DNA of 64,000 bases, taken from assembly GCA_951406725.2 (NCBI GenBank), contig OX597815.1:37820001-37884000 (forward strand), written 5' to 3'. Within the stretch, counting starts at the first letter, position 1. Each line of letters starts with the position of its first letter. The notes beneath the pieces are model-generated. The model saw only the letters and a list, made by a program, of their open reading frames with translations, was not told the origin of the DNA and did not search any database. The DNA comes from Octopus vulgaris (lineage: Eukaryota). The position numbers and the translations under genes were made by a program. Positions 3,586 to 63,337 of the stretch are shown piece after piece.

Positions 3586-3980
3586 TCTTTATATATAAAA
3601 GTGAAGTTGTGTGTCTGTCTCCTACGATTTAGATTCCTAACTACTCCCACATTTTGCGGTGCCGTGTAACCAAAAGCGGATATCTTATAGTCGTGATGCA
3701 TATCGAGCCCTTCTGGGTATTAGCGCGCGTCTGCGATGAGTCTACGATTTAAAAAAAAAATTACCATCATGTTTTCCCATTTTTAATGCATTTTTTCGCT
3801 ATTATATAAGGGAAGTAACTCTCTAAAAATGTATTATTAAATCCCAGAACGTCAAAAGCTACAGTAACACCCCCCTTTGTGGTTAGCCATATTGAGATTA
3901 CTATTATACTTTACATCTCTAAAAATGCTTATATAGTTATTTCCCTTACAAACCCGAGCAACGCCGGGCGATACTGCTAG
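3586..3980 (+). mobile_element. Non-autonomous Helitron
   Basis: A|TCTTTATATATAAAA 5' end, subterminal GC hairpin CCCGAGCAACGCCGGG, 3' CTAG|T; inserted between A and T with no TSD; same 3' end seen at 55385. Confidence 0.85.
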
Positions 3981-5559
3981 TCACATATGAAATTTTGAAC
4001 TTGTGCTTTGAGGAGAATATAGTAAATACCTCGGTGGAAGTAAGGGTTAAGGGTGTACGTTTAAATCTCAGGGGTGCGATTTCTCATTGAAACGAAGCAT
4101 ACACTTTATTCCACTAAGGCTGTTTTTCGCGTAATTCCATTCCCTATAATAAAATTTATGCGCAGACAAAATCGCGTTGAATGCTGAAGGTTGAAAGTAA
4201 GTCTTGTACTATGGTCGATCCATACACGCTTTTCAATAGTTGTTTTCCTCGAAAGCCTTCAAATCACGATTCGTGTACACTGTAACTTCTTTCAATTATG
4301 TATAAAGAATAAAACCATATGTGTGTGTGGATGTGCGTGTTCTTTCTGTTGTTTCAGCCTTTGGGCCAAACCGTGCAGGACCAAACCCCGAAACGGTTTC
4401 AATCGACCAAGTCGATATCAGTAATTTTTGTTCATCTCTCATAAGGATACTATCAGTTTATAGATTGCCAAAGCACTAATTCACGATGATGTAAGCAAGC
4501 CAACACACACACACACATAAACACACACACGCACACGCACGCATGCACACACACACATACACACACATGAACACACACACACATATGCTTATATATACAT
4601 ATATGCATATATGTGTACAGGACGTGGGCTTCCTTGTATGTCTCCACTGCCCTGTTTTTGTTCCCAACTTTGACCCTCCATAAATCCTAAATTTTATTTT
4701 AGTATTTATCGGAGCAAATGTCTTTGAAGACTCATATTGTCGTTGAATGCTCGAAATGGGGAGTAGATAGACAGCCGACAACTGATGAAGGGTCCTTCCT
4801 CTGTGTTTACTTGTCCTATGTATTTCATGTTGTTTGCGCAGTTGGTGACATCCTGTACCCATATATGATTCCTTATTGAAGTGAGCGCACTAAATATGTA
4901 GCGTCAAACAAGAAATTCTTGCCACAGAGAGGACAATCCGCTGAAATGTAACGAAGATACCAGATAGAACTATTAAAACCCGGTGATTGACCAAACTTTA
5001 TCAACTAGGTACGGGGTACGGTGCGGTGAGATTTGAGCGCAGAAGGCAGAGAGCCAGTACGAATACAGCAAGGCGTACAGTCTGATATTTTGAGAACCAT
5101 CTTCGACTGAATGCATTTTGCATCATAGTCAACACCGAAGCAAAATAGATAATTTGATCATGGTGAGCACGGAATTCTATCCAACGTTCTATCGACTATC
5201 CTACTCCATTGCATTACTCCATGCCTGCATGTCTATGTTCGTGCGAATATGCGCGCGTACGCGTTTGTTGTTGTGTGTGTGTATGTGTGTGTCTGTGTGT
5301 TTGTGTTTGAAAATCCACATCTGCACAAGCACAGTAAGGCTATTAGAAAGGTAGAGAGTCTCATTTGTGCGCTTACACACAGTGATCAGTATCCCCAGTC
5401 CTCAAACCTACGTATTGATTTTCCTTCTCTTTTATAGAAATATATTTTTTCTTGATCAACTTGATCACTGTCGAGTACTCTCTCTCTTTCTCTTTCTCTT
5501 TCTCTCTCTCTCTTTCTCACACACACACATAAACGTGTACAATACTGATTCAGATAGAA

Positions 5560-5900
5560 TCGGGTGCTTGAAAAGACATGCACCAGGAAGGACTTATATT
5601 GGTTGCTCTATAAATCTGAAGCATCGCTTACGCAACGACTATTTATCCTTTAAATCAAGACATAGGATAGGCAGGACTTCTCTAGCCACGAAGATTTGGG
5701 AACTTAAGGATAACAATCTTAAATTCGATTTGAAATGGGACAACTTTATGGTCGCTAAACCGTATTCAAACACCAGATATAGGGTCAGACGTTGCTGCAT
5801 GGAGCTGTTTGAAATTTTAAAGAGATGAAATAGGGAAAATCTAATTAATAACAAACTAGACCTTCGTCTTTCTTGTATACATAAGGCTACCTTTAAGTAT
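5560..5900 (+). mobile_element. Penelope-like element GIY-YIG endonuclease remnant
   Basis: Translation TYIGCSINLKHRL...SFK...TSLATKIWELKDNNLKFDLKW...AKPY...CCMELFEI, then NLINNKLDLRLSCIH after a stop; resembles a PLE GIY-YIG C-terminus. Confidence 0.7.
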
Positions 5901-10439: not shown

Positions 10440-11555
10440 TCAATTTTGTGTGTCATTCGGAATTGTTTGCATTTCATTGTTAGAAATGTTTTGGGCTGGA
10501 ATATCTTGTTCAGTCGTTCGTGGACGACAGAAATCGACAATGATACATTTGCATGTCTTAAGAAGTAATTCACGAAGATGATAACGAAAAGTTGGGGACA
10601 CAATAAAATAAATATAGAAACGACAAGCATAATTTAGATTATTAACAATGCTAAAGTATGAAATAATCTTTGTGAATCGTCGGTTACCAAATGTCATTGC
10701 AACTCTGCTGGCATTATTTAATAAAGTCAGCACTATTGTAGCAAATGTTATAGTTGTTACCATAGTCGTTAAATCAAACCCCATGTCAGTGGGGCAGATC
10801 CTTTCATTTGTTGGATTATTAATCACTGTATTTGGTTTATAATTGGTAACAATCGTGGTTGTGTTGGCATTTTGTCGTAAATTTGGCTGGAGACATCTTA
10901 GAGAGCGACGAGTTTGGCAGTCGTACCACATGTACAAAAGAAGTCGAAATAAAAGAACGACAAAACAAATGGTCGGAAGTAAAACAACAATGATAGTGTC
11001 AATAATATTCAATTTATGATAATAATTCGCGCTACCTGGCCACAAACCACATAGGTTACGTTGTTCATCTACGCCAAATATCCATGCAATGTGCAAATAA
11101 AAGGCAAGTGCTAAAATCGCCAGTCCAATTGAAATCAGGCGTGCACGAAATGTTGTTTTTATTCGCCATTGGGAAGAGGGGTGAACCAAATCAAGATATC
11201 GTTCTATAAGTAAGCAGACTAGATACCATGGCGATAGGAATATACTAACGAAGTTACACAGAATTATTATTTGACACCAGCCATATTTGTTGTATATGTC
11301 GATTCTCTGTCTCGGAAGCCAAGTCATCAATAATATGGTAATGAGGACACCATTATCAACAACTGCTAACGCCATCATAGAATGTGTAGCTGGAATTCGT
11401 TTAATACTAGTGTAATAGAACGTTAAAATTGCCCAAATGTTACCAAATACGCCGAAAGCTATAACTGTCGGCGTGCCATAAAGCTCTAAAGCCTCTCTAA
11501 GTGGATCTCTCTGGTAAATAAATTGCTGATAGTTAGTGTTGTTTGAGTACGCCAT
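10440..11555 (-). CDS. Class A (rhodopsin-like) 7TM GPCR, orphan peptide-receptor-like / putative chemoreceptor, 371 aa from the first ATG
   Basis: Uninterrupted ORF with seven hydrophobic segments; TM1 GN (FGVFGNIW), TM2 LAVVD, Cys at top of TM3 (WCQ) and in ECL2 (NLCG), TM3 IERY..VHP, TM5 Pro, TM7 NYACRFYIY and helix 8 SPTFR; N-terminal sequon NNT; ATG in ACAATGG context. Confidence 0.93.
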   Translation of the reverse strand: MAYSNNTNYQQFIYQRDPLREALELYGTPTVIAFGVFGNIWAILTFYYTSIKRIPATHSMMALAVVDNGVLITILLMTWLPRQRIDIYNKYGWCQIIILCNFVSIFLSPWYLVCLLIERYLDLVHPSSQWRIKTTFRARLISIGLAILALAFYLHIAWIFGVDEQRNLCGLWPGSANYYHKLNIIDTIIVVLLPTICFVVLLFRLLLYMWYDCQTRRSLRCLQPNLRQNANTTTIVTNYKPNTVINNPTNERICPTDMGFDLTTMVTTITFATIVLTLLNNASRVAMTFGNRRFTKIISYFSIVNNLNYACRFYIYFIVSPTFRYHLRELLLKTCKCIIVDFCRPRTTEQDIPAQNISNNEMQTIPNDTQN

Positions 11556-11595
11556 TGTAACACTGCTGTTATTTGATGGGTTCTTCAAGAGGATC

Positions 11596-11616
11596 CTGAA
11601 AAAGAAAAATTAGAAG
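11596..11616 (-). promoter_or_regulatory. 3' splice acceptor of the GPCR coding exon
   Basis: Minus strand TTCTAAT (branch-point-like) TTTTCTTTTT CAG|GATCC; exon starts at 11595, 40 nt before the ATG. Confidence 0.75.
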
Positions 11617-24385: not shown

Positions 24386-25483
24386 CAGGTGTTGGACAAA
24401 ATAATGGAAACACGTAGCATCATAGCATCACAATTTTTTGATATATTATTAGTGTTGCTTAATATGTTTTGCTAAAATTGCTGTTTCTTTTCAGATATCA
24501 TTAGAAAAAGATAATTAAGATTCATTAAAATGACAAATCTGTTGGACTTTCAAAGAGATCAAATTGTTGGTACTCGGAAAGCAAGCGCTAGCGTAACGAA
24601 AAGAGCCGAAATGTTTGGTGTACCGACCAATACTGCCTTGCCGAAACAAAACTCGGGAAGAAAACCAAAACTTGCAGATAGAGAGCGTCGGATTCTTACG
24701 CGAATTGTTAGAAAGGAAAACAAAAGTACAGCTCTCACAATTATTGCAGAGCTTAATGACCACATCGACAACCCTGTTTTCACAAAACCTGTTCGCCGGA
24801 AGCTGCACAAAGTCAGATTTCATGGAAGGGTTGCAATCAGAAAGCCACTACTTTCAAAAACAAACGTTGCAAAGCGTTTAGAGTGGAGTAAAAACCTACA
24901 CAATGGGTCTCTAGAGCAGTGGAAGAATGTTATTTTCTCGGACGAATTAATCCTTTACTTTATTTCTGACAACTGGCCGGGTATGCTAGTGGAGACAGCC
25001 AAAAGAAGCATTTGATCCAGACTGCATTCTTCCAACTCTTAAACATGGATAAGGATCCGTAATGATCTGGTGGAGTTATATCTTGGAAATACTCCGACCC
25101 AATGATTTCACTTCATGGCAGAATTAATAGTCAAGACTATATAAGCATTTTATCTGATCAAATTCATGCTATGCTTGCGGAACTGTTTCCATAGGTAATG
25201 TTCTCGTGAAGTTGAACATATAATCTGGTCACCACAATCCACATATAGTGCAATTTAAAATAACAAGTAAGGAGTCGATATCCTCGACCATGATTACTAC
25301 AAGATTCGGAGACCGCTTTAGCTGAAAAATGAGCAAAAATTCCCTTGGAAACAACGAAAACTTTGTACGAGTCCATACCTCGTAGAATTCAAGCTGTAAT
25401 TACTACCAAAGGCAGCCCTATCGCATTTTAAAATAAATTCGTTTGAAATTTTAAGGCCTTTCCCTTATTTTGTCCAACCCCTC
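24386..25483 (+). mobile_element. Tc1-like DNA transposon with disrupted transposase
   Basis: TA|CAGGTGTTGGACAAAATAATGGAAA ... TTTCCCTTATTTTGTCCAACCCCTC|TA; ORF 24530-25015 has HTH start, SGRKPKL, RKPLLS and WKNVIFSDE, then frameshifts and stops. Confidence 0.92.
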
Positions 25484-25571
25484 TAGTTATGAGCTACTAA
25501 TGCTTTCATGAATTGAAGATATAGTATTCAAAACAGGCCTAACGCCTCCGAGTATCATTAATTTAACATAT

Positions 25572-25980
25572 ACAGAAGTGGCTGTGTGGTAAGTAGCTTG
25601 CTAACCAACCACATGGTTCCAGGTTCAGTCCCACTGCGTGGCATCTTGGGCAAGTGTCTTCTACTATAGCCCCGGGCCGACCAATACCTTGTGAGTGGAT
25701 TTGGTAGACGGAAACTGAAAGAAGCCTGTCGTATATATGTATATATATAGATATGTATGTGTGTGTGTGTTTGTGTATCTGTGTTTGTCCCCCTAGCATT
25801 GCTTGACAACCGATGCTGGTGTGTTTACGTCCCCGTCACTTAGCGGTTCGGCAAAAGAGACCGATAGAATAAGTACTGGGCTTACAATGAATAAGACTCG
25901 GGGTCGAGTTGCTCAATTAAAGGCGGTGCTCTAGCATGGCCGCAGTCAAATGACTGAAACAAGTAAAAGAGAGAAAGAGA
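25572..25980 (+). mobile_element. Full-length tRNA-derived SINE (octopus-type)
   Basis: A-box-like TGGCTGTGTGG and B-box-like GGTTCAGTCCC, central (TA)/(TG) tract, conserved tail GCATGGCCGCAGTCAAATGACTGAAACAAGTAAAAGA; multiple copies in window. Confidence 0.88.
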
Positions 25981-26486
25981 ATACTCGACTATGTACTATA
26001 TATATGTATATAGTTATATATATGCATGCCTGATCCTTCTACCTATATACGCATATAGAAACAAACATACGTACATGCATACATCCATACATGTATACAT
26101 ACATACGCACATACATACATACATACGTACATACATACATACATACACACACACATATATATATATATATGTGAACAACTACTGAACAACTACTTCCTGT
26201 TTTGACAGACAGGACCTGAACAACTACTTCCTGTCTTGACATTCACTTAACAGACATCCTTAATTAAATTAAACAGCACATGGATTTAATCACATGGATC
26301 TCAATCCTCCAAGGTAATTTTTTCAAGAACTATCATTAAACTCGAGATACACAAAGACTTTACAATGTATCGGTGGACCTATTTTTTAATTTTTGTATAT
26401 GTTTATTATTATTTTTTTGCAAAAAACAATGTAATTTTCTTTTTTCCACATCCTCAAACATAAACATTTTTTTCTTTTCACCATAC

Positions 26487-27517: not shown

Positions 27518-28481
27518 CTGAGTAGATATATACACACATAGGAATTATATTTATATCTATACATACATATTTATATACATATGTGTATATATATATATAT
27601 ATATATATGAGTGTGAGTGTGTATATATAGGCGCCTGTAAACGCATGTATATAGTTTATATATGCATGTATAATATAGCACAAATTGGAATAGAGATGGA
27701 GACAAGAGAAATTGTAACTTCCTCTTGTAAGGAATTGAGGTTAACGAAGACAATTTCCATTATCTATGTTTTAAATAATAAAACGTTGGCGTGGGTGGGT
27801 CTTCCCTAAGGAAAACTCTTAAACAATATTGTTTTGATTGTGTTGAATATCATAAGTGTTCTCTTTAAATGCTATTATATTTGAACTTTCATGATCATGT
27901 TCTTGACTGGCTTCTATGTTATACTGATGCACTTTTTGAAATAACATTTTTATAACCCTCGGCATTACTTTTGGTTAATGTCACATAAAATTTGTATTCG
28001 CTTGTTAAATATCATATTTGATCACAGCTGTATAAAATATTTGATAGTGTAATGAAGTTGAGCGTTATTTAGTTCATTAGACGATGCTTTCTCGATTGGC
28101 GTTTAGGTCTTTCTACGCTTACCACTAGGGTTAATCGTTTCTGAAAATAATCGGTTTGTGTTTCCCAATTTTCCTTTCTTACACGTGAATCATTTCTTAG
28201 TCATTTAATTGTATATTCATCTAGCTATATATTATACCAGCAGACATACCCGGCGTTGCTCGGAATTAAAATGGTATAGTTTTTTTATTGTTTTATTTGT
28301 TTCAGACATGTTACTGCAGTCATGTTGGAGCACCGCAGTTGGTCGGACAAATCGATTACAGGATTTATTCTTTGAAAGTCTAGTACTTCTTCTAGCAGAA
28401 TCTTTTGACGAATCGCTAATTCATGAGAACGTAAACAGAGCAACATCGGTTGTCAAACAATGGTGGGGTTTCAAACGCACA

Positions 28482-28522
<41 letters not shown>

Positions 28523-29142: not shown

Positions 29143-29159
29143 TATGTGGGCATAGGACG

Positions 29160-30385
29160 TCATGTAATGTGTGCAGGAAAAAAGTACGAATAACGAGTAC
29201 ATGGAACACGAAGTATTCTTTTGAACAGCGAAAAACACAAATAGAAAACAAAACAAAACAACATAAAGAACGACACTTCATCAGTTGTTGGCTGTTTTTC
29301 TAGTCTCGCATTTCGAGCATTTAACAACAATAAACGTCTACTGGGGCAGAAACTTCTAAGGTCTTGTTTGTCTAGATATTCATTGTCATATGTCAGTCTA
29401 AGTAGGAGGCCCAGTTCCTTTGTGTTGACATTGCGGACCTCCACTTCGCTCTCGCTAATCATCCCCACACACTTCTCCACTGCAAAATCCTCGTCGATAG
29501 ATGGGTATAGGAATACAGCATCCATGCCACCCGCTACCACCAGAATTCAAAACGAACGACGAAACGAACATCTATGGGAGAATAGTAACTGGCCCAGATG
29601 AAAAGTTGGTATTTAAACATGTACAACAACAACAACAACAACAGGAGCGACAGCAATATTACGAACAGCAATAACCGCAGCAACAAGAACAACAACTACA
29701 CGAACGACAACAACAACCGTAACAACAAGAACAACATGAACGACAACAACAACACGAACAACTACAACCGCACCAACAGCAACAACAACAGCAGCAACAA
29801 CGGCAAAAACGAACACACGAACACACGAACACAAGCAACAGATACAAATACAAAAACAAAAACAGAGAAAAAGTCGAATACAACAACAACAACAACAACG
29901 GTAATAGGGGGAACGGGCACACAGACACACACAGATGGCATTAGGTACAAGGACACGAATAAAAGTAAGGTCATGGTTATCGTGGGGGAGAGTAAAGTTG
30001 AATGCAACACAATTCTTGGACAGTGAGTCAGCAGACTAGAAACAGAAAACACTGCTGCTAGGAACAGAAACAACAACCACAACCGGTTGCGGTGGAGAAG
30101 TGCTTAGAGATGATCAGCGAGAGCGAAGTGGAGTTCCGCAATGTCAACACAGAGGAACTGGTCCTCCTACTTAGACTGACATATGATAATGAATATCGAA
30201 ACAAGCATGACCTTAGAAGTTTCTTCCCCAGTAGACGTTTAAAAGGTAGACCAACCACAATTACGTCTATGGCTAGGAATACCCCTATAGAGAGATGGAG
30301 CGGATGGATCAGAGCCATGCGGACCCCACGCCGTAAACGAATATCAAGTAAAGAAAACAATCGCACATGCACTAGGAGCTAGTAT
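29160..30385. mobile_element. Penelope-like RT fragments in inverted arrangement around (AAC)n-rich spacer
   Basis: Minus ORF GMDAVFLYPSIDEDFAVEKCVGMISESEV... (PLE-type DxxxLYPSI motif) and plus ORF VEKCLEMISESEVEFRNVNTEEL.LLLRLTYDNEY are homologous. Confidence 0.65.
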
Positions 30386-48365: not shown

Positions 48366-49214
48366 TTTTATCCACTAATTCTGACTTAAAATTAAGTACT
48401 GGCATGTTTTATGATTACTGAGTAAACGTGTAGAAGATTCTTCTTGTGTACTCATTCTCTCCCGTGAGATTTCGAATATAGGATATACATACTAAACATT
48501 CATATATATTCTATGAGTATAGAAAGGTAGAAAGAGAGAGAAAGAGAGAGAGAGAGAGAGACAGACAGACATACAGAGAGACAAGGAAACAAAACGAGAG
48601 AGAGAGAGAGAGCTAGAGAATTAGAGAGAGGGATGGTAATGGGGAAAGAGAGTAAGTTAAAAAGAGTCGTGAAAGAGAAAAAAAGAACATTCTCATGTAA
48701 TAATATTTAAGTAGGTACATGAATTATTCCAAGTGTAGAAATCAACACAGCTTTTATCATATCCAACCTTTGCTTCAAAACAAATTGACAAAAATTGCTT
48801 CCAGTATTCAGAAATTATGCTTATAAATGATGTGGCATATTTTCAAAGTGGAATGGATCTGCTTCAATGTTCATAATGTTAACCTTCCTTCCAGGCAATA
48901 TCATCTCTAATTTTCTGTACTCTGTATTAATTCATGCTTCAACATTGTTAATAAAGTATTCGAAACCAATTACCGTAAAACTGTGTTATGTTTTCATCAG
49001 GTTTCAAAAATTCTTTATATGCAGTTTCTTCATTACTCAAAAATATTGCAACGATTGTTTTCATTCTTACCCTAATAGTATTCTTAAGTTCATTACTTCA
49101 TTAACGGATCAGTCTCGCGTTAATTTCTATAGTAGCTGTACCAAAAAAATTCCCTGAGGTAATTTCATCTGTCTATGGTATCTATATTTGAAAGTCGTTG
49201 AAGGAGTTCTTTTA

Positions 49215-49480
49215 TTCTTTTATTCTTTTACTTGTTTCTCTCATTTGACAGCGGCCATCCTGGAGCACCGCATTAACCGCCTTTTTAGTCGAAGAGATCG
49301 ATCTCAGGACTTATTTTTTGTAAGCCTGGTACCTATTCCATCGGTCTGTTCTGCTGAACCTTTAAGTTAAGCAGACATAAACACAGACACAAAGGTTCTT
49401 TTTCTATAGCCTTGGGCTGACGAAATCTTTGTGATTGGACTTGATAGACAGATACTGAAAGTAGCCCGTCGTTTATATAT
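49215..49480 (-). mobile_element. Diverged SINE (family of 25572)
   Basis: TTTTACTTGTTTC..TCATTTGACAGCGGCCATCCTGGAGCACCGC tail on minus strand. Confidence 0.7.
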
Positions 49481-51889: not shown

Positions 51890-52064
51890 CATCATTTATA
51901 TTATTTACATTCAACGGATATTTTTCCTCATCTTGTTTGCTTTTAACACAATGTTTCGGCTGATATACCCTCCAGCCTTTTTCAGGTGTCTTAGAGAAAT
52001 TTCGAACCTGGGTTCTCATTCCTAAGGTATTTTTTCAATGTTATTGTTGTTGTTGTTGTTGTTG

Positions 52065-52135
<71 letters not shown>

Positions 52136-53066
52136 ATTATTATTATTATTATTATATTCGTGATACCTTTATACGCTGGCCCTACCAAGAAGATGCCCAA
52201 GTGCTATTAGATCATGTCAACTCAATAAAGCCATCCATACATTTCAAAATGGAAAAGGAAAAAGACAATCAGCTGGCATTCCTGGACGTATTAATAACAT
52301 GCACCAAGTATGGATTGAAGACATCCGTATACGGCAAACCGTCCTTTACTGGACGATACCTCAACTTCAATTCCCACCATGCATACAGTCTAAAGAGAGG
52401 GATTACTCAGTGCCTAAAACATCGTGCAAAAATATAGGTAGCGATCGTGATACACACCACGAAGAAATGATGAAGCTCAACGATTTGTTAAGCACCAACT
52501 ACACCAAAAGTGTACTATCCTCTCTGATTGTGAAGAAGAGAGAGGCTGAGACCATTAAACTGTCCACAGTCTGTCTACTCTATGTGAAAGGCCTCTCCGA
52601 AAAGATACAAAGATATGCGGCCTATATGACATCAGGACAGTATTCAAGAGTAATACAACACTTCGGAAATATCTCCTTCAGGTAAAACAACTGATAGAAG
52701 AGAATATGACCAAAGACTGCGAGCACTCCATCCCAAGCAGCTGAGGTAGGTTATACAAAGGCGAAACATTCCGCCCCCTCAAAATAAGGATAGACGAACA
52801 TAGCAAAGCTGTGACACGAGGAGATATTGATCAAACGGGTATAGCTGATCATGTGTGGAAAAATGGAGACCACCTCCACGTGTGGGATGAAGTTAAAATA
52901 ATAGACAAAGAACACAAGTGGAAAATACGAAAACTAAAAGAAGCAGCTCATATGCTAGGACACAGCTGCCTCCTAATCAGACCGAGTGCAGATATGAGCA
53001 GCATATGGGAACCGGTATTAAGGAAGGATAGGAAAATATTAGATTTATAAGCCTTAAAATTCACTC

Positions 53067-55345: not shown

Positions 55346-55384
<39 letters not shown>

Positions 55385-55385
<1 letters not shown>

Positions 55386-55751
55386 TAGCAGTATCGCCCG
55401 GCGTTGCTCAGGTTTGTAAGGGAAATAACTATAAAGCATTTTTAGAGAGTTATAGCCAAAAAATAGCAAAAAAATGGAAAAAAATGATGGTAAATTTTTT
55501 TTGAGATTTAAAAAAGGTGGAGTTGCGTCCCCTAGACAGTTTTTGGTTTGTGTTTCTGATTCTCGACCCCATGTCGAATTTATCGATTTTTTTCAGAACT
55601 GGGGGAACTTTTCAAAATTTTCGCTGCGTTAGTTTTGAATTATGACATTGGGCTATGTGTGTGTCAAGTTTCATCAGAATCGGTTGAAAGCCGTGGTCAG
55701 GGTGAGGGTACAAGCAAACAGACACACAGAAACACGCACAGACAAACTGCC

Positions 55752-55765
<14 letters not shown>
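55385..55765 (-). mobile_element. Non-autonomous Helitron
   Basis: A|CTAGCAGTATCGCCCGGCGTTGCTCAGGTTTGTAAGGGAAATAACTATA is the near-exact reverse complement of the 3586-3980 3' end; 5' part differs. Confidence 0.85.
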
Positions 55766-55791
<26 letters not shown>

Positions 55792-56492
55792 GTACATGCA
55801 TATTCAGCATATTCAGATTATAATAGAAGATAACATACATAGATAATATGACTGATATGCCCTAAATTCCCAGTTTGCAAAATGCGTGAATATATCATAT
55901 ATCTCAATATCTAAGAAATTGCATAATATATTACGTTGATCTCTTAAATGTTCATTAGTTCATTGTTTTACGAATATTTTGTTTTCGATAAATTAAATTT
56001 GTCTTTACCTTACTGAATATGACCGTCATGTATTAAGCCTGTGTCTCTATTCAATGACAATTACCATGTACAAAAAGCAGTTAGTGAATGTTGTTCTCTT
56101 GTTATGGTTTAGTTCGTTTAAAAAATCTAGTTATGCTGTTCAATGTCGATTTTTAAAAGATGCTGATGTATATATATATATATATATATATATGTATGAA
56201 TATATATATATATATATAATTAATTAATAAGGGTGAGAGAATTAGATACTAATTTAATAGTATATCTATTCAACACCAAGTGGCCTAGTGCTACGAGAAA
56301 CCTGGATTATTATAATATTTTATAACATATTATAATATTTTTACAAAATAAATATAAGAGAGTGGTCACTATATGGCTCACTCTAGCACCAGTTAATCCA
56401 AAAGGTTTCAACCACGAAAATACATGTTTCCCATGAAAGTCAGTACGATTGTTAGTTCACACGGACAGGGCAAATAAAAAATAACAAAAATA

Positions 56493-56588
56493 CAGATTAT
56501 TTTGGGACAATTGTTTCGCTATTAATGAATTAAATGTAATTTTACTTACAAAAAAATCCATTTGTAGCTCGTCAGCCAAAACTATCTG
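56493..56588 (-). ncRNA. Type I hammerhead ribozyme (inverted copy 1)
   Basis: Reverse complement of the motif at 57272. Confidence 0.88.
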
Positions 56589-57027
56589 GATGAAATCCAC
56601 TCAATCACACGCCAGATTTTACCATAACGATAAATACGCATGTGGTTCAATTGATTACATCCGACGTTATAATTCAAATGCCCCAACTAACAGCGCGCCA
56701 AACTTTCACGGAAAACAAATACAGCATTTAGAAATAAATGCAGCATAATTATAATTAATTAATAAGGGTGAGAGAATTAGATACTAATTTAATAGTATAT
56801 CTATTCAACACCAAGTGGCCTAGTGCTACGAGAAACCTGGATTATTATAATATTTTATAACATATTATAATATTTTTACAAAATAAATATAAGAGAGTGG
56901 TCACTATATGGCTCACTCTAGCACCAGTTAATCCAAAAGGTTTCAACCACGAAAATACATGTTTCCCATGAAAGTCAGTACGATTGTTAGTTCACACGGA
57001 CAGGGCAAATAAAAAATAACAAAAATA

Positions 57028-57124
57028 CAGATTATTTTGGGACAATTGTTTCGCTATTAATGAATTAAATGTAATTTTACTTACAAAAAAAATCCATTTG
57101 TAGCTCGTCAGCCAAAACTATCTG
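57028..57124 (-). ncRNA. Type I hammerhead ribozyme (inverted copy 2)
   Basis: Reverse complement of the motif at 57272. Confidence 0.88.
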
Positions 57125-57271
57125 GATGTCCCAAAATAATCTGTATTTTTGTGAAAGTTTGGCGCGCTGTTAGTTGGGGCATTTGAATTATAACGTCGGA
57201 TGTAATCAATTGAACCACATGCGTATTTATCGTTATGGTAAAATCTGGCGTGTGATTGAGTGGATTTCATC

Positions 57272-57367
57272 CAGATAGTTTTGGCTGACGAGCTACAAAT
57301 GGATTTTTTTGTAAGTAAAATTACATTTAATTCATTAATAGCGAAACAATTGTCCCAAAATAATCTG
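57272..57367 (+). ncRNA. Type I hammerhead ribozyme, predicted cleavage after C57354
   Basis: CAGATAGTTTTGG [CTGACGA] GCTA...TAGC [GAAA] CAATTG [TC] CCAAAATAATCTG: stem I TTTTGG/CCAAAA extended by CAGAT/ATCTG, stem II GCTA/TAGC, palindromic stem III ACAATTGT, GUC triplet. Confidence 0.9.
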
Positions 57368-57806
57368 TATTTTTGTTATTTTTTATTTGCCCTGTCCGTG
57401 TGAACTAACAATCGTACTGACTTTCATGGGAAACATGTATTTTCGTGGTTGAAACCTTTTGGATTAACTGGTGCTAGAGTGAGCCATATAGTGACCACTC
57501 TCTTATATTTATTTTGTAAAAATATTATAATATGTTATAAAATATTATAATAATCCAGGTTTCTCGTAGCACTAGGCCACTTGGTGTTGAATAGATATAC
57601 TATTAAATTAGTATCTAATTCTCTCACCCTTATTAATTAATTATAATTATGCTGCATTTATTTCTAAATGCTGTATTTGTTTTCCGTGAAAGTTTGGCGC
57701 GCTGTTAGTTGGGGCATTTGAATTATAACGTCGGATGTAATCAATTGAACCACATGCGTATTTATCGTTATGGTAAAATCTGGCGTGTGATTGAGTGGAT
57801 TTCATC

Positions 57807-57903
57807 CAGATAGTTTTGGCTGACGAGCTACAAATGGATTTTTTTTGTAAGTAAAATTACATTTAATTCATTAATAGCGAAACAATTGTCCCAAAATAAT
57901 CTG
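57807..57903 (+). ncRNA. Type I hammerhead ribozyme, cleavage after 57890
   Basis: Same motif as 57272. Confidence 0.9.
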
Positions 57904-58342
57904 TATTTTTGTTATTTTTTATTTGCCCTGTCCGTGTGAACTAACAATCGTACTGACTTTCATGGGAAACATGTATTTTCGTGGTTGAAACCTTTTGGAT
58001 TAACTGGTGCTAGAGTGAGCCATATAGTGACCACTCTCTTATATTTATTTTGTAAAAATATTATAATATGTTATAAAATATTATAATAATCCAGGTTTCT
58101 CGTAGCACTAGGCCACTTGGTGTTGAATAGATATACTATTAAATTAGTATCTAATTCTCTCACCCTTATTAATTAATTATAATTATGCTGCATTTATTTC
58201 TAAATGCTGTATTTGTTTTCCGTGAAAGTTTGGCGCGCTGTTAGTTGGGGCATTTGAATTATAACGTCGGATGTAATCAATTGAACCACATGCGTATTTA
58301 TCGTTATGGTAAAATCTGGCGTGTGATTGAGTGGATTTCATC

Positions 58343-58439
58343 CAGATAGTTTTGGCTGACGAGCTACAAATGGATTTTTTTTGTAAGTAAAATTACATTT
58401 AATTCATTAATAGCGAAACAATTGTCCCAAAATAATCTG
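58343..58439 (+). ncRNA. Type I hammerhead ribozyme, cleavage after 58426
   Basis: Same motif as 57272. Confidence 0.9.
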
Positions 58440-58878
58440 TATTTTTGTTATTTTTTATTTGCCCTGTCCGTGTGAACTAACAATCGTACTGACTTTCATG
58501 GGAAACATGTATTTTCGTGGTTGAAACCTTTTGGATTAACTGGTGCTAGAGTGAGCCATATAGTGACCACTCTCTTATATTTATTTTGTAAAAATATTAT
58601 AATATGTTATAAAATATTATAATAATCCAGGTTTCTCGTAGCACTAGGCCACTTGGTGTTGAATAGATATACTATTAAATTAGTATCTAATTCTCTCACC
58701 CTTATTAATTAATTATAATTATGCTGCATTTATTTCTAAATGCTGTATTTGTTTTCCGTGAAAGTTTGGCGCGCTGTTAGTTGGGGCATTTGAATTATAA
58801 CGTCGGATGTAATCAATTGAACCACATGCGTATTTATCGTTATGGTAAAATCTGGCGTGTGATTGAGTGGATTTCATC

Positions 58879-58975
58879 CAGATAGTTTTGGCTGACGAGC
58901 TACAAATGGATTTTTTTTGTAAGTAAAATTACATTTAATTCATTAATAGCGAAACAATTGTCCCAAAATAATCTG
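58879..58975 (+). ncRNA. Type I hammerhead ribozyme, cleavage after 58962
   Basis: Same motif as 57272. Confidence 0.9.
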
Positions 58976-59414
58976 TATTTTTGTTATTTTTTATTTGCCC
59001 TGTCCGTGTGAACTAACAATCGTACTGACTTTCATGGGAAACATGTATTTTCGTGGTTGAAACCTTTTGGATTAACTGGTGCTAGAGTGAGCCATATAGT
59101 GACCACTCTCTTATATTTATTTTGTAAAAATATTATAATATGTTATAAAATATTATAATAATCCAGGTTTCTCGTAGCACTAGGCCACTTGGTGTTGAAT
59201 AGATATACTATTAAATTAGTATCTAATTCTCTCACCCTTATTAATTAATTATAATTATGCTGCATTTATTTCTAAATGCTGTATTTGTTTTCCGTGAAAG
59301 TTTGGCGCGCTGTTAGTTGGGGCATTTGAATTATAACGTCGGATGTAATCAATTGAACCACATGCGTATTTATCGTTATGGTAAAATCTGGCGTGTGATT
59401 GAGTGGATTTCATC

Positions 59415-59510
59415 CAGATAGTTTTGGCTGACGAGCTACAAATGGATTTTTTTGTAAGTAAAATTACATTTAATTCATTAATAGCGAAACAATTGTCCCA
59501 AAATAATCTG
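59415..59510 (+). ncRNA. Type I hammerhead ribozyme, cleavage after 59497
   Basis: Same motif as 57272. Confidence 0.9.
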
Positions 59511-59949
59511 TATTTTTGTTATTTTTTATTTGCCCTGTCCGTGTGAACTAACAATCGTACTGACTTTCATGGGAAACATGTATTTTCGTGGTTGAAACCT
59601 TTTGGATTAACTGGTGCTAGAGTGAGCCATATAGTGACCACTCTCTTATATTTATTTTGTAAAAATATTATAATATGTTATAAAATATTATAATAATCCA
59701 GGTTTCTCGTAGCACTAGGCCACTTGGTGTTGAATAGATATACTATTAAATTAGTATCTAATTCTCTCACCCTTATTAATTAATTATAATTATGCTGCAT
59801 TTATTTCTAAATGCTGTATTTGTTTTCCGTGAAAGTTTGGCGCGCTGTTAGTTGGGGCATTTGAATTATAACGTCGGATGTAATCAATTGAACCACATGC
59901 GTATTTATCGTTATGGTAAAATCTGGCGTGTGATTGAGTGGATTTCATC

Positions 59950-60046
59950 CAGATAGTTTTGGCTGACGAGCTACAAATGGATTTTTTTTGTAAGTAAAAT
60001 TACATTTAATTCATTAATAGCGAAACAATTGTCCCAAAATAATCTG
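59950..60046 (+). ncRNA. Type I hammerhead ribozyme, cleavage after 60033
   Basis: Same motif as 57272. Confidence 0.9.
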
Positions 60047-60485
60047 TATTTTTGTTATTTTTTATTTGCCCTGTCCGTGTGAACTAACAATCGTACTGAC
60101 TTTCATGGGAAACATGTATTTTCGTGGTTGAAACCTTTTGGATTAACTGGTGCTAGAGTGAGCCATATAGTGACCACTCTCTTATATTTATTTTGTAAAA
60201 ATATTATAATATGTTATAAAATATTATAATAATCCAGGTTTCTCGTAGCACTAGGCCACTTGGTGTTGAATAGATATACTATTAAATTAGTATCTAATTC
60301 TCTCACCCTTATTAATTAATTATAATTATGCTGCATTTATTTCTAAATGCTGTATTTGTTTTCCGTGAAAGTTTGGCGCGCTGTTAGTTGGGGCATTTGA
60401 ATTATAACGTCGGATGTAATCAATTGAACCACATGCGTATTTATCGTTATGGTAAAATCTGGCGTGTGATTGAGTGGATTTCATC

Positions 60486-60582
60486 CAGATAGTTTTGGCT
60501 GACGAGCTACAAATGGATTTTTTTTGTAAGTAAAATTACATTTAATTCATTAATAGCGAAACAATTGTCCCAAAATAATCTG
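60486..60582 (+). ncRNA. Type I hammerhead ribozyme, cleavage after 60569
   Basis: Same motif as 57272. Confidence 0.9.
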
Positions 60583-60725
60583 TATTTTTGTTATTTTTTA
60601 TTTGCCCTGTCCGTGTGAACTAACAATCGTACTGACTTTCATGGGAAACATGTATTTTCGTGGTTGAAACCTTTTGGATTAACTGGTGCTAGAGTGAGCC
60701 ATATAGTGACCACTCTCTTATATTT

Positions 60726-60773
<48 letters not shown>

Positions 60774-60864: not shown

Positions 60865-61291
60865 TTCTTTATTCTTTTATTCTTTTACTTGTTTCAGTCA
60901 TTTGACTGCGGCCATGCTAGAGCACCACCTTTTAGTCGAGCAAATCGACCCCATGACTTATTCTTTGTAAGCCTAGTACTTATTCTATCGGTCTTTTGGT
61001 GAACCACTAAGATACGTGGACGTAAACACACCAGCATCGGTTGTCAAGCGATGTTGGGGGGACAGACACAGACACACAAATATATACACACACATACATA
61101 TATATATATATATACATATATATGACGGGGTTTTTTCAGTTTCCGTCTACCAAACCAAATCCACTCACAAGAATTTGGTCCGCCCGAATCTATATCAGAA
61201 GACACCTGCCGAAGGTGCCACGCAGTGTGATTGAACTCGGAACTATGTGGTTGGTAAGCAAGCTACTTACCACGCAGACACTACTGCGCCT
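60865..61291 (-). mobile_element. Full-length tRNA-derived SINE (family of 25572)
   Basis: Colinear reverse complement of 25572-25980 with (AATAAAAG)n tail. Confidence 0.88.
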
Positions 61292-61565: not shown

Positions 61566-61651
61566 AAGGATGAAAAGTAACACACGAGTTGATATATGTG
61601 AAAAAACAAGTCAAGATAGAAAATGCTAAAATAATTTTATAAAGAATATTT

Positions 61652-61688
61652 CAGTACCGGTTTCAGTCATTTGAGACGTTTTCAACTG
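61652..61688 (-). ncRNA. Minimal hammerhead-like motif in pLTR (U3-A8 variant)
   Basis: Minus strand CAG TTGAAAA CGTC TCAAAT GACT GAA ACCGGT A CTG. Confidence 0.55.
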
Positions 61689-62672
61689 TAACGATTAAAT
61701 AATTAAATTTAGAAAAATTAAAAGAAAAGTTTTTTTAAAAGAATATTTGTATAATGTTCAAATATAAGTGGCATTTTCCTTGTTTCTGCCTTTCTCTGTC
61801 TCTCTTTGTTTACACTTGTGGGTTCGAGGTCCTTGTGAATTCTTGGTAGGGAAGAAGAAGAAGGATGAAGAGAAGGCGGGGAGGCTTCATCGTTGAGAGG
61901 GTTTCCTCTCAACAATGAAGCCTTCGACATCATCCTCCAAAACATACCTCTGCTAAAGAAAGACTACAGAATGAACATAATCCTCCAAACATACACGATC
62001 ATAAAAAGCAAGAGACAGCCTAAATCTATGAAAAGTCTCCTAACACAAGCCCGAATTCGCTCATCAACACAGAAGCCGAGAGTAAAAGAATGTGGAAGAC
62101 CCAACTGCAGGATATGCGATTATCTAATTGAGGGATCAGAGTTCTCTTTCAAACAGGGACAACGGTTCACAGTGAAAAGCAACTTCACATGTGCTTCGGA
62201 GAACCTGATATACACACTAACCTGCTCTGGGTGTCAAGAGCAATACATAGACCAAACAAAAAATAGTTTGCGTAAAAGAATGGCCCTGCACAGATCCCAG
62301 ATAAAAATTCCCCAAAACAGAAAAAATAGCATTCAGCCAACACATAGATATTTGCGCCAACAACAAAACACCAAGCTTCGGGATTTTCCCCCTCTACCAA
62401 TTCAGGGACGATTCAACCTCGAGCCAACGAATAAGTAAAGAAACACTCTTTATTACAAAATACAGGCCCCTTCTGAACGGGTCTACGACAAACGATATAT
62501 CCACCTCGGTTTTAGAGTAACACAAATACACACGCAAATATTACATTCCTAAGAATCCATTAAAAATCAGCCCCAATCACAGCTATAACCCATAACGTGC
62601 CAACTTTAAGTCATACAACGCCACACTACTTCCACGCATTCATATTCTCCCTTCTCTTTCTTCTTCTTCTTC

Positions 62673-62747
<75 letters not shown>

Positions 62748-63201
62748 TTCTTCTTCTTCTTCTTCCACTTCTTCCTCTTCTCCCCTTTCTACTTCCTAGC
62801 TTTATCACTAATGCTTTTTAGTATAACACCTACGCAAATTCTATAAACAAACCTTTCAATAGAAATATTCTCATGAATTGAACAGCAACTGCTAGCCGCC
62901 ACTGACCAATCAAAATACGACAATCAAGGCACTTCCAAATTTCCTCCCCCTTCTCCTCATCCTTCTTCTTCTTCTTCTTCTTCTTCTTCTTCTTCTTCTT
63001 CTTCTTCTTCTTCTTCTTCTTCTTCTTCTTCTTCTTCTTCCCTACCAAGAATTCACAAGGACCTCGAACCCACAAGTGTAAACAAGAGAGACAGAGAAAA
63101 GCAGAAACAAAGAAAATGCCACTTATATTTGAACATTATACAAATATTCTTTTAAAAAAACTTTTCTTTTAATTTTTCTAAATTTAATTATTTAATCTTT
63201 A

Positions 63202-63238
63202 CAGTTGAAAAGGTCTCAAATGATTGAAACCGGTACTG
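63202..63238 (+). ncRNA. Minimal hammerhead-like motif in pLTR (U3-A8 variant)
   Basis: CAG TTGAAAA GGTC TCAAAT GATT GAA ACCGGT A CTG. Confidence 0.55.
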
Positions 63239-63288
63239 AAATGTTCTTTATAAAATTATTTTACCATTTTCTATCTTGACTTGTTTTT

Positions 63289-63337
<49 letters not shown>

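Follow-up and report, generated by a model that had tools for sequence, protein, structure and literature searches.

A two-armed insertion of a hammerhead-bearing repeat with fixed, paired outer ends in Octopus vulgaris

Results

Layout of the insertion and its repeat unit

The window analysed here (64,000 nucleotides of Octopus vulgaris, contig OX597815.1, positions 37,820,001 to 37,884,000) contains, flanked on each side by a (TA)n tract, a 4.5-kb insertion built from a 536-nt unit. Positions on the unit are numbered from u1 (57891), the first base 3' of a predicted GUC^ self-cleavage site, with window positions 57891-58426 serving as the 536-nt reference unit. The features needed below are as follows:

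56169..56218, no strand: (TA)n target, left side (tandem repeat and sequence)
56215..57128, minus strand: arm B, 914 nt or 1.7 units (exact mapping on the unit)
57019..57044, minus strand: sequence of arm B closest to the patch that could have templated it (26 bp, a perfect inverted repeat)
57127..57152, plus strand: templated patch of 26 nt, u533-u22 (exact mapping on the unit)
57151..60725, plus strand: arm A, 3,575 nt or 6.7 units (exact mapping)
57807..57903, plus strand: one predicted type I hammerhead copy (motif scan and fold)
60726..60770, no strand: (TA)n target, right side (tandem repeat)
61567..63298, no strand: neighbouring insertion of PLE-1, a coding Penelope-like element (PLE) family, with a two-arm layout in (TA)n

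Arm B has its sense 3' end at u291, which proved to be a fixed position in the family (see below), facing the left (TA)n tract, and its 5' end at u449; arm A runs from a 5' end at u332 to a 3' end at u156 (the family site lies at about u161) facing the right tract. The units at this locus are identical apart from the length of one T-run, and the unit has an internal 20-nt repeat. We found no open reading frame of at least 150 amino acids within the array which, lacking a frame with reverse transcriptase (RT) and GIY-YIG domains, is non-autonomous and not an autonomous PLE.

Type I hammerhead ribozymes are built from a CUGANGA / GAAA / UH core with stems I, II and III. A motif scan detected seven copies on the plus strand and two on the minus strand of the insertion, with the core present in all nine. 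The copy at 57807-57903 comprises stem I, a CUGACGA core, a long stem II, GAAA and a 2-bp stem III with an AAUU loop, with the GUC^ cut predicted after 57890; its fold had z=-2.9, and stems I and II are present in the predicted structure. In the 25 most frequent out of 242 motif hits, the core was invariant except at N7 (C, A or G), and one locus carried a restoring change in stem I. Judged by its sequence, the predicted ribozyme thus has the core and stems of a type I hammerhead. A search of Rfam returned nothing at the gathering threshold in the window and chance hits only for a single unit, a miss probably caused by the long stem II.

Searching the genome (2.8 Gb in 227 contigs) by exact 31-mer matches, we counted at least 2,679 units of this family dispersed over multiple loci, 77 of which we read in addition to the window. 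None of the datasets listed as containing the sequence is recorded as RNA. Non-coding tandem repeats with a type I hammerhead motif in each are the features by which non-LTR retrozymes are recognised, and the array of 536-nt units fits their description at the sequence level. Specifically, as characterised in the accessible text of PMC7229834 and bioRxiv 10.64898/2026.07.22.740005, metazoan non-LTR retrozymes are likewise AT-rich non-coding tandem units with a type I hammerhead per repeat, dispersed at many loci alongside PLEs, although the reported units (170-400 nt) are shorter than the one described here.

Other features of the window include a single-frame rhodopsin-family GPCR at 10440-11609 on the minus strand (7tm_1, E=8e-10) and a Tc1/Tc3 transposase fragment at 24515-25015 on the plus strand (E=3e-12). 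A repeat of about 385 nt, with shared terminal sequences, lies at 55378-55765 and also within a retrozyme copy elsewhere (L047:3318-3702, at u283); it has a partial copy at 3916-3988 and is probably a non-autonomous DNA element. An older dispersed repeat, SINE-like by eye, occurs at 60865-61286, 25571-25983, 28280-28503 and 49207-49385, the copies being 75-87% alike.

The inner seam of the insertion

The original prediction described a minus-oriented block that ends at 57128, a 26-nt plus-strand patch joined to it through TG, and a jump within the unit through GT. Exact mapping reproduced this layout, including TG (2 nt) common to minus block and patch and GT (2 nt) common to patch and plus block, while the skip within the unit came to 311 nt instead of about 330. 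The patch had also been said to start at the ribozyme cleavage site, which is not the case. The predicted cut falls between 57130 and 57131, which makes u1 (57131) the first base of any cleaved 3' product. The patch, however, opens 2-4 nt further upstream and spans an intact GUC^C: the TC at u535-536 (U16.1-C17, upstream of the scissile bond) belongs to the patch and cannot be supplied by arm B. Because it carries bases from upstream of the cut, the patch was copied from an intact or religated site.

An insertion with 4-6 breakpoints has a 7-10% chance of one of them falling within 4 nt of the cut. The junction is the variable inner seam of a head-to-head insertion, and its position near the predicted cut is likely due to chance. 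On its own the seam is ordinary, and the family-level signal is not carried there.

A possible route to the patch lies in arm B itself. The last 118 nt of this arm (57011-57128) represent the hammerhead complement; as DNA, they are predicted to fold into a terminal hairpin (-9.7 kcal/mol) whose partner strand holds the perfect patch template at a distance of 82 nt. The arm probably snapped back at its end onto the complement of hammerhead stem I, was extended by a copy of 22-26 nt and then annealed to arm A via GT. We propose that such a snap-back would place the patch beside the cut through structure, not cleavage. Snap-back synthesis with subsequent re-annealing is characteristic of polymerase-theta-type repair. 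An RT jump on intact RNA would yield the same letters, and sequence alone cannot separate the two. Comparable patches, from other unit positions, were found at L034, L041, L061 and L103.

Inner ends across the family relative to the predicted cut

According to the original prediction, an RT reached the 5' end of the self-cleaved linear RNA and switched template twice, which predicts seams at the GUC site; clustering of breakpoints there in other copies was offered as a check. The 77 other loci in which we examined this were 38 of 39 scored loci (from 984 candidates; this subset is biased to close, long copies) and 39 taken from the first 100 of the 2,679 exact 31-mer matches in order along contig C1. 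Arms were mapped by BLAST and near-collinear segments merged; nested or complex loci (L038, L047, L051 and L081) were set aside and stray segments in L071 and L101 dropped, leaving 44 two-arm loci (window included) and 30 one-arm loci, i.e., 73 insertions besides that of the window.

We found no concentration of ends at the cut. Among 121 sense 5' ends outside the window, none lay within 2 nt of it (1.1 expected; 95% upper bound 2.4%), one within 5 nt (2.5 expected) and two within 10 nt (4.7 expected), and the distribution over 12 bins gave a chi-square p=0.38; the sole hint of structure was a group of 17 ends within stem II, between u482 and u511 (scan p=0.046). The inner seams are scattered, with 0-6 nt of microhomology or short inserts.

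Exact breaks at the cut do occur. A genome-wide probe for sequence starting precisely at u1 had five hits, comprising three true breakpoints (L111, L112 and L113) and two one-base deletions, and a matched control probe at u101 had three hits, all of them true breakpoints, the u1 and u101 23-mers being equally common in the sample (90 and 89). Two further control probes were void, as their 23-mers, with 0 and 8 sample copies, belong to a rare haplotype; the second pattern was also off at position -2. Ends at the cut are hence no more frequent than at an arbitrary site, these being small numbers with which a two-fold excess is still compatible. Of the individual loci, L111 has an arm that jumps from u1 to u470 with the ribozyme core deleted, and L113 is a clean 291-nt insertion, u1-u291. 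Passes through the cut were exact in 255 of 258 cases, with single-base variants in the other three, and therefore give no sign that copying jumped from end to end at a cleaved terminus.

Template switching at a cleaved RNA end would account for a patch that covers u1-22, for the three exact breaks at u1, for another cut-crossing patch at L150 (u522-30) and for several listed contig joints within about 15 nt of the cut. It is contradicted by u535-536 in the patch, by the absence of ends within 2 nt of the cut and by the equal count at the control position. We consider this explanation already largely refuted and its remaining probability slight.

Outer ends are fixed and paired

A different picture emerges for the outer (sense 3') ends than for the inner ones. 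All but two of 118 fall into two classes, nearly always adjoining (TA)n: class A at u145-166, mostly 161, and class B at u276-292, mostly 291. A head-to-head inverted 5'-truncated arm is present in 44 of the 74 analysed loci, and 43 of these 44 pair one A end with one B end, with no A/A or B/B combination (binomial p=1e-13); the remaining locus combines B with u179. The same 43 loci carry the longer 3' end on one side only, giving a tail of 130 nt. One-arm insertions end at either fixed site, and exact joins to (TA)n number at least 816 for B and at least 329 for A genome-wide. This changes the status of the minus block in the window, which had been viewed as an inverted 5' segment: it is inverted, but it starts at the fixed u291 and is best described as a primed arm, not as a randomly flipped 5' fragment.

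Paired ends bear directly on two alternative explanations. The seam could be an assembly error or a fold-back chimera, given that inverted repeats trouble assemblers and that none of the listed contigs bridges it (contigs from four runs, in which the pieces listed provide no evidence either way). By contrast, 43 loci show this architecture again, with the ends fixed and in the correct pairing, the seam in the window is not a symmetric fold-back (u449/u533/u332), and the 9-nt seam insert of L045 is present in contigs of run X1; an artefact is therefore very improbable. Alternatively, a monomer may have been inserted first, with array and inversion arising later at the DNA level through unequal crossover or replication fold-back. 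Local amplification is the model for retrozyme arrays in the accessible text of bioRxiv 10.64898/2026.07.22.740005, and a few arrays are indeed mosaic. Later rearrangement does not, however, predict the constant position and pairing of the outer ends seen in 43 of 44 loci whatever the array length, nor arms that are often both multimeric and identical (L057, L107 and the window), and we regard it as improbable to almost the same degree.

Arms of one insertion match each other but are not always nested

Arms of the same insertion are almost identical. In the 35 loci whose arms share 100 columns or more, we counted 19 differences among 11,819 columns, whereas mean divergences to other loci are 0.7-3.8%. 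At 10 of the 35, no other sampled locus fits an arm as well as its partner. The long arrays of L057, L107 and the window are homogeneous across both arms.

An alternative is a single priming event in which the cDNA snaps back and copies itself, the second fixed end being created by endonuclease resolution. Both elements of this scheme have been put forward for PLEs, i.e., self-priming for the palindromic junctions of Penelope (PMC3846280, accessible text) and endonuclease resolution for the tail (PMC8557442, likewise). It is also favoured by the seams: 11 of 44 are near-symmetric, lying within 20 nt of the same unit position (3.4 expected; the threshold was chosen post hoc). This excess is not explained by independent random stops and suggests fold-back in a share of events, but it could also reflect both RTs stopping together on one RNA. 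Some near-symmetric seams are impossible as simple fold-backs (L050 and L099), and such seams occur in the coding family PLE-2 too (L095, L154, L160 and L163).

Against single priming, neither arm is contained in the other at 7 of 41 loci (L045, L061 and L074 left out), and two of them, L096 and L104, have arms without any overlap, so that two separate primings are needed, at least at those loci. Moreover, one-arm insertions end at either site, and the start sites determined in vitro coincide with tail ends in the accessible text of PMC11167929. As a general explanation we therefore judge single priming with self-copying unlikely.

Mosaic units were observed in the arms of L037 (3903-5297) and L054 (2836-8319), where the first unit differs at 8 sites and variants alternate. 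They point to copying from two templates in turn, to a multimer of mixed units or to conversion at a later time; a single circle cannot yield such arms.

Coding Penelope-like families in the same genome

The neighbouring PLE-1 insertion at 61567-63298 consists of a minus arm with a tailed end at 61567 and a plus arm with a short end at 63298, the latter arm containing a GIY-YIG remnant at 61869-62438. The original prediction that the retrozyme insertion mirrors its PLE neighbours holds in this respect, as each has one tailed and one short end. PLE-1 has many apparently identical 784-aa frames, and full-length copies match RVT_1 (E=3.5e-8) and GIY-YIG (E=3.8e-4, just under the Pfam cut-off), with no match in PDB. 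Among 32 fetched loci (the window's own copy included), both outer ends could be read in 12, and without exception these combine a short end with one 34 nt longer.

The second family, PLE-2, has 880 exact hits and a 4.9-kb unit (L152:445-5311; L095:104-1458; L153-L170). It encodes an RT-like frame with an Asn-rich stretch, in which RT motifs were recognised by eye; its frames matched no Pfam family. PLE-2 is possibly a member of the Hydra clade. It carries a canonical hammerhead with a stem II similarly long to that of the retrozyme, and its insertions, chosen as minus/plus pairs, combine ends at +41 and +162 after the cut in 20 of 20 cases, a tail of 121 nt, well beyond the 30-40 bp described for EN+ PLEs. 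Three families of this genome accordingly have tails of 34, 121 and 130 nt.

A BLAST comparison of the 536-nt unit with the two families tested, PLE-1 and PLE-2, returned short AT-rich matches only. A 10-nt motif is common to the retrozyme B end (u270-279) and the PLE-1 tail end (L143:4549-4558), which is not significant alone, and four of the six fixed ends seen have a CTTAT-like word, located at the end itself or just ahead of it. A short-stem-II hammerhead relative was considered as a PLE partner and dropped, its one hit being a deleted copy of the same retrozyme family. The case for a driver PLE comes from the footprint, not from homology, and by analogy PLE-2 appears a nearer candidate than PLE-1 on tail length (121 versus 130 nt) and hammerhead shape.

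Further PLE-like remnants were seen in the window at 5355-5828, 51964-52685 and 29150-30330, comprising an endonuclease-like fragment 49% identical to the second PLE-2 frame, an RT C-terminal-like fragment and an inverted RT-like pair around an (AAC)n-rich stretch; a Pfam search of the window's three PLE-like fragments gave no family.

Discussion

A two-armed integration model

Taken together, we think it probable that the junction is the seam of a two-armed hammerhead-repeat (non-LTR retrozyme) insertion with fixed outer ends, and that its proximity to the predicted cut is a matter of chance. The RNA intermediate of the original prediction is retained as likely, as is a PLE enzyme that uses a single RNA as template on either side of a DNA break. 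In such a reaction, a PLE protein with RT and GIY-YIG domains would cut both strands in (TA)n, and both 3' ends of the target would serve as primers on one RNA species, with reverse transcription starting at u161 from one end and at u291 from the other. Each RT would then read repeatedly round a religated circle (or, less likely, an uncut multimer) and stop at an arbitrary point, after which the two cDNA 3' ends would be joined by microhomology-mediated repair. We infer the circle from the seamless identical units, for which an uncut multimer transcribed from a homogeneous array is the alternative.

More tentatively, and with rather less than even confidence, we propose that PLE integration in general is an obligately asymmetric double priming, in which one ribonucleoprotein engages both (TA)n ends at two fixed RNA sites. 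The circular retrozyme RNA would mimic this handle, a head-to-head multimer would be born in one event, the tail would be the distance between the two landing points, and the PLE-2 lineage would be the likely driver.

Relation to known systems

Two target ends that prime on one RNA are familiar from L1, where twin priming produces 5' inversions and the cDNAs are joined by microhomology. In L1, however, priming at the second end occurs at variable positions and the arms are non-overlapping, whereas both retrozyme sites are fixed and the retrozyme arms overlap many times. An L1-like event with u291 as a random internal site had been considered and was dropped once u291 proved fixed.

The closest biochemical parallel is PAc, a Poseidon element from Anolis (PMC11167929). 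In the accessible text of that study, the protein cuts and extends both target strands in vitro at an AT-rich target, with two internal RNA start sites that define the tail; it is predicted to dimerise, and hammerhead cleavage is not needed. The retrozyme shares the two internal starts, both-strand cutting and extension, and the AT-rich target, but here the two sites form an obligate pair across one break. The accessible text does not address inverted structures, and it describes start-site use without a strand difference, which counts against the two-site model. EN+ PLEs, as described in the available portions of PMC8557442 and PMC3846280, share with the retrozyme the head-to-head inverted 5'-truncated copy, the one-sided tail, the (TA)n bias and the 5' junction microhomology. 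The retrozyme differs in having no open reading frame and a tail of 130 nt as against 30-40 bp, and in that both its arms may run several rounds over the unit.

The element is thus a retrozyme and its footprint a PLE footprint, both of known kinds. For retrozymes, the accessible text of PMC7229834 and bioRxiv 10.64898/2026.07.22.740005 proposes circRNA copied into tandem cDNA as the template and contains no description that we found of two fixed termini, of arms placed head to head or of insertion ends in general; the preprint bases its argument for the PLE link on co-occurrence and pLTR phylogeny. In the literature as accessible, we did not find paired fixed termini, head-to-head retrozyme arms or tails of 120-130 nt, which supplements (Fig. 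S2 of PMC11167929, Fig. S9 of PMC7229834) or subscription papers may anticipate. How PLEs make inverted one-tailed insertions and how retrozymes move are called open questions in the same portions of PMC8557442, PMC7229834 and bioRxiv 10.64898/2026.07.22.740005.

From this young family, with its hundreds of exact termini, come two start sites defined to the base and a rule for their pairing, and the same genome has candidate enzymes that appear intact. Double-primed rolling-circle reverse transcription thereby becomes testable in the existing in vitro PLE assay, and the termini and their pairing argue that these satellite-like arrays are born multimeric.
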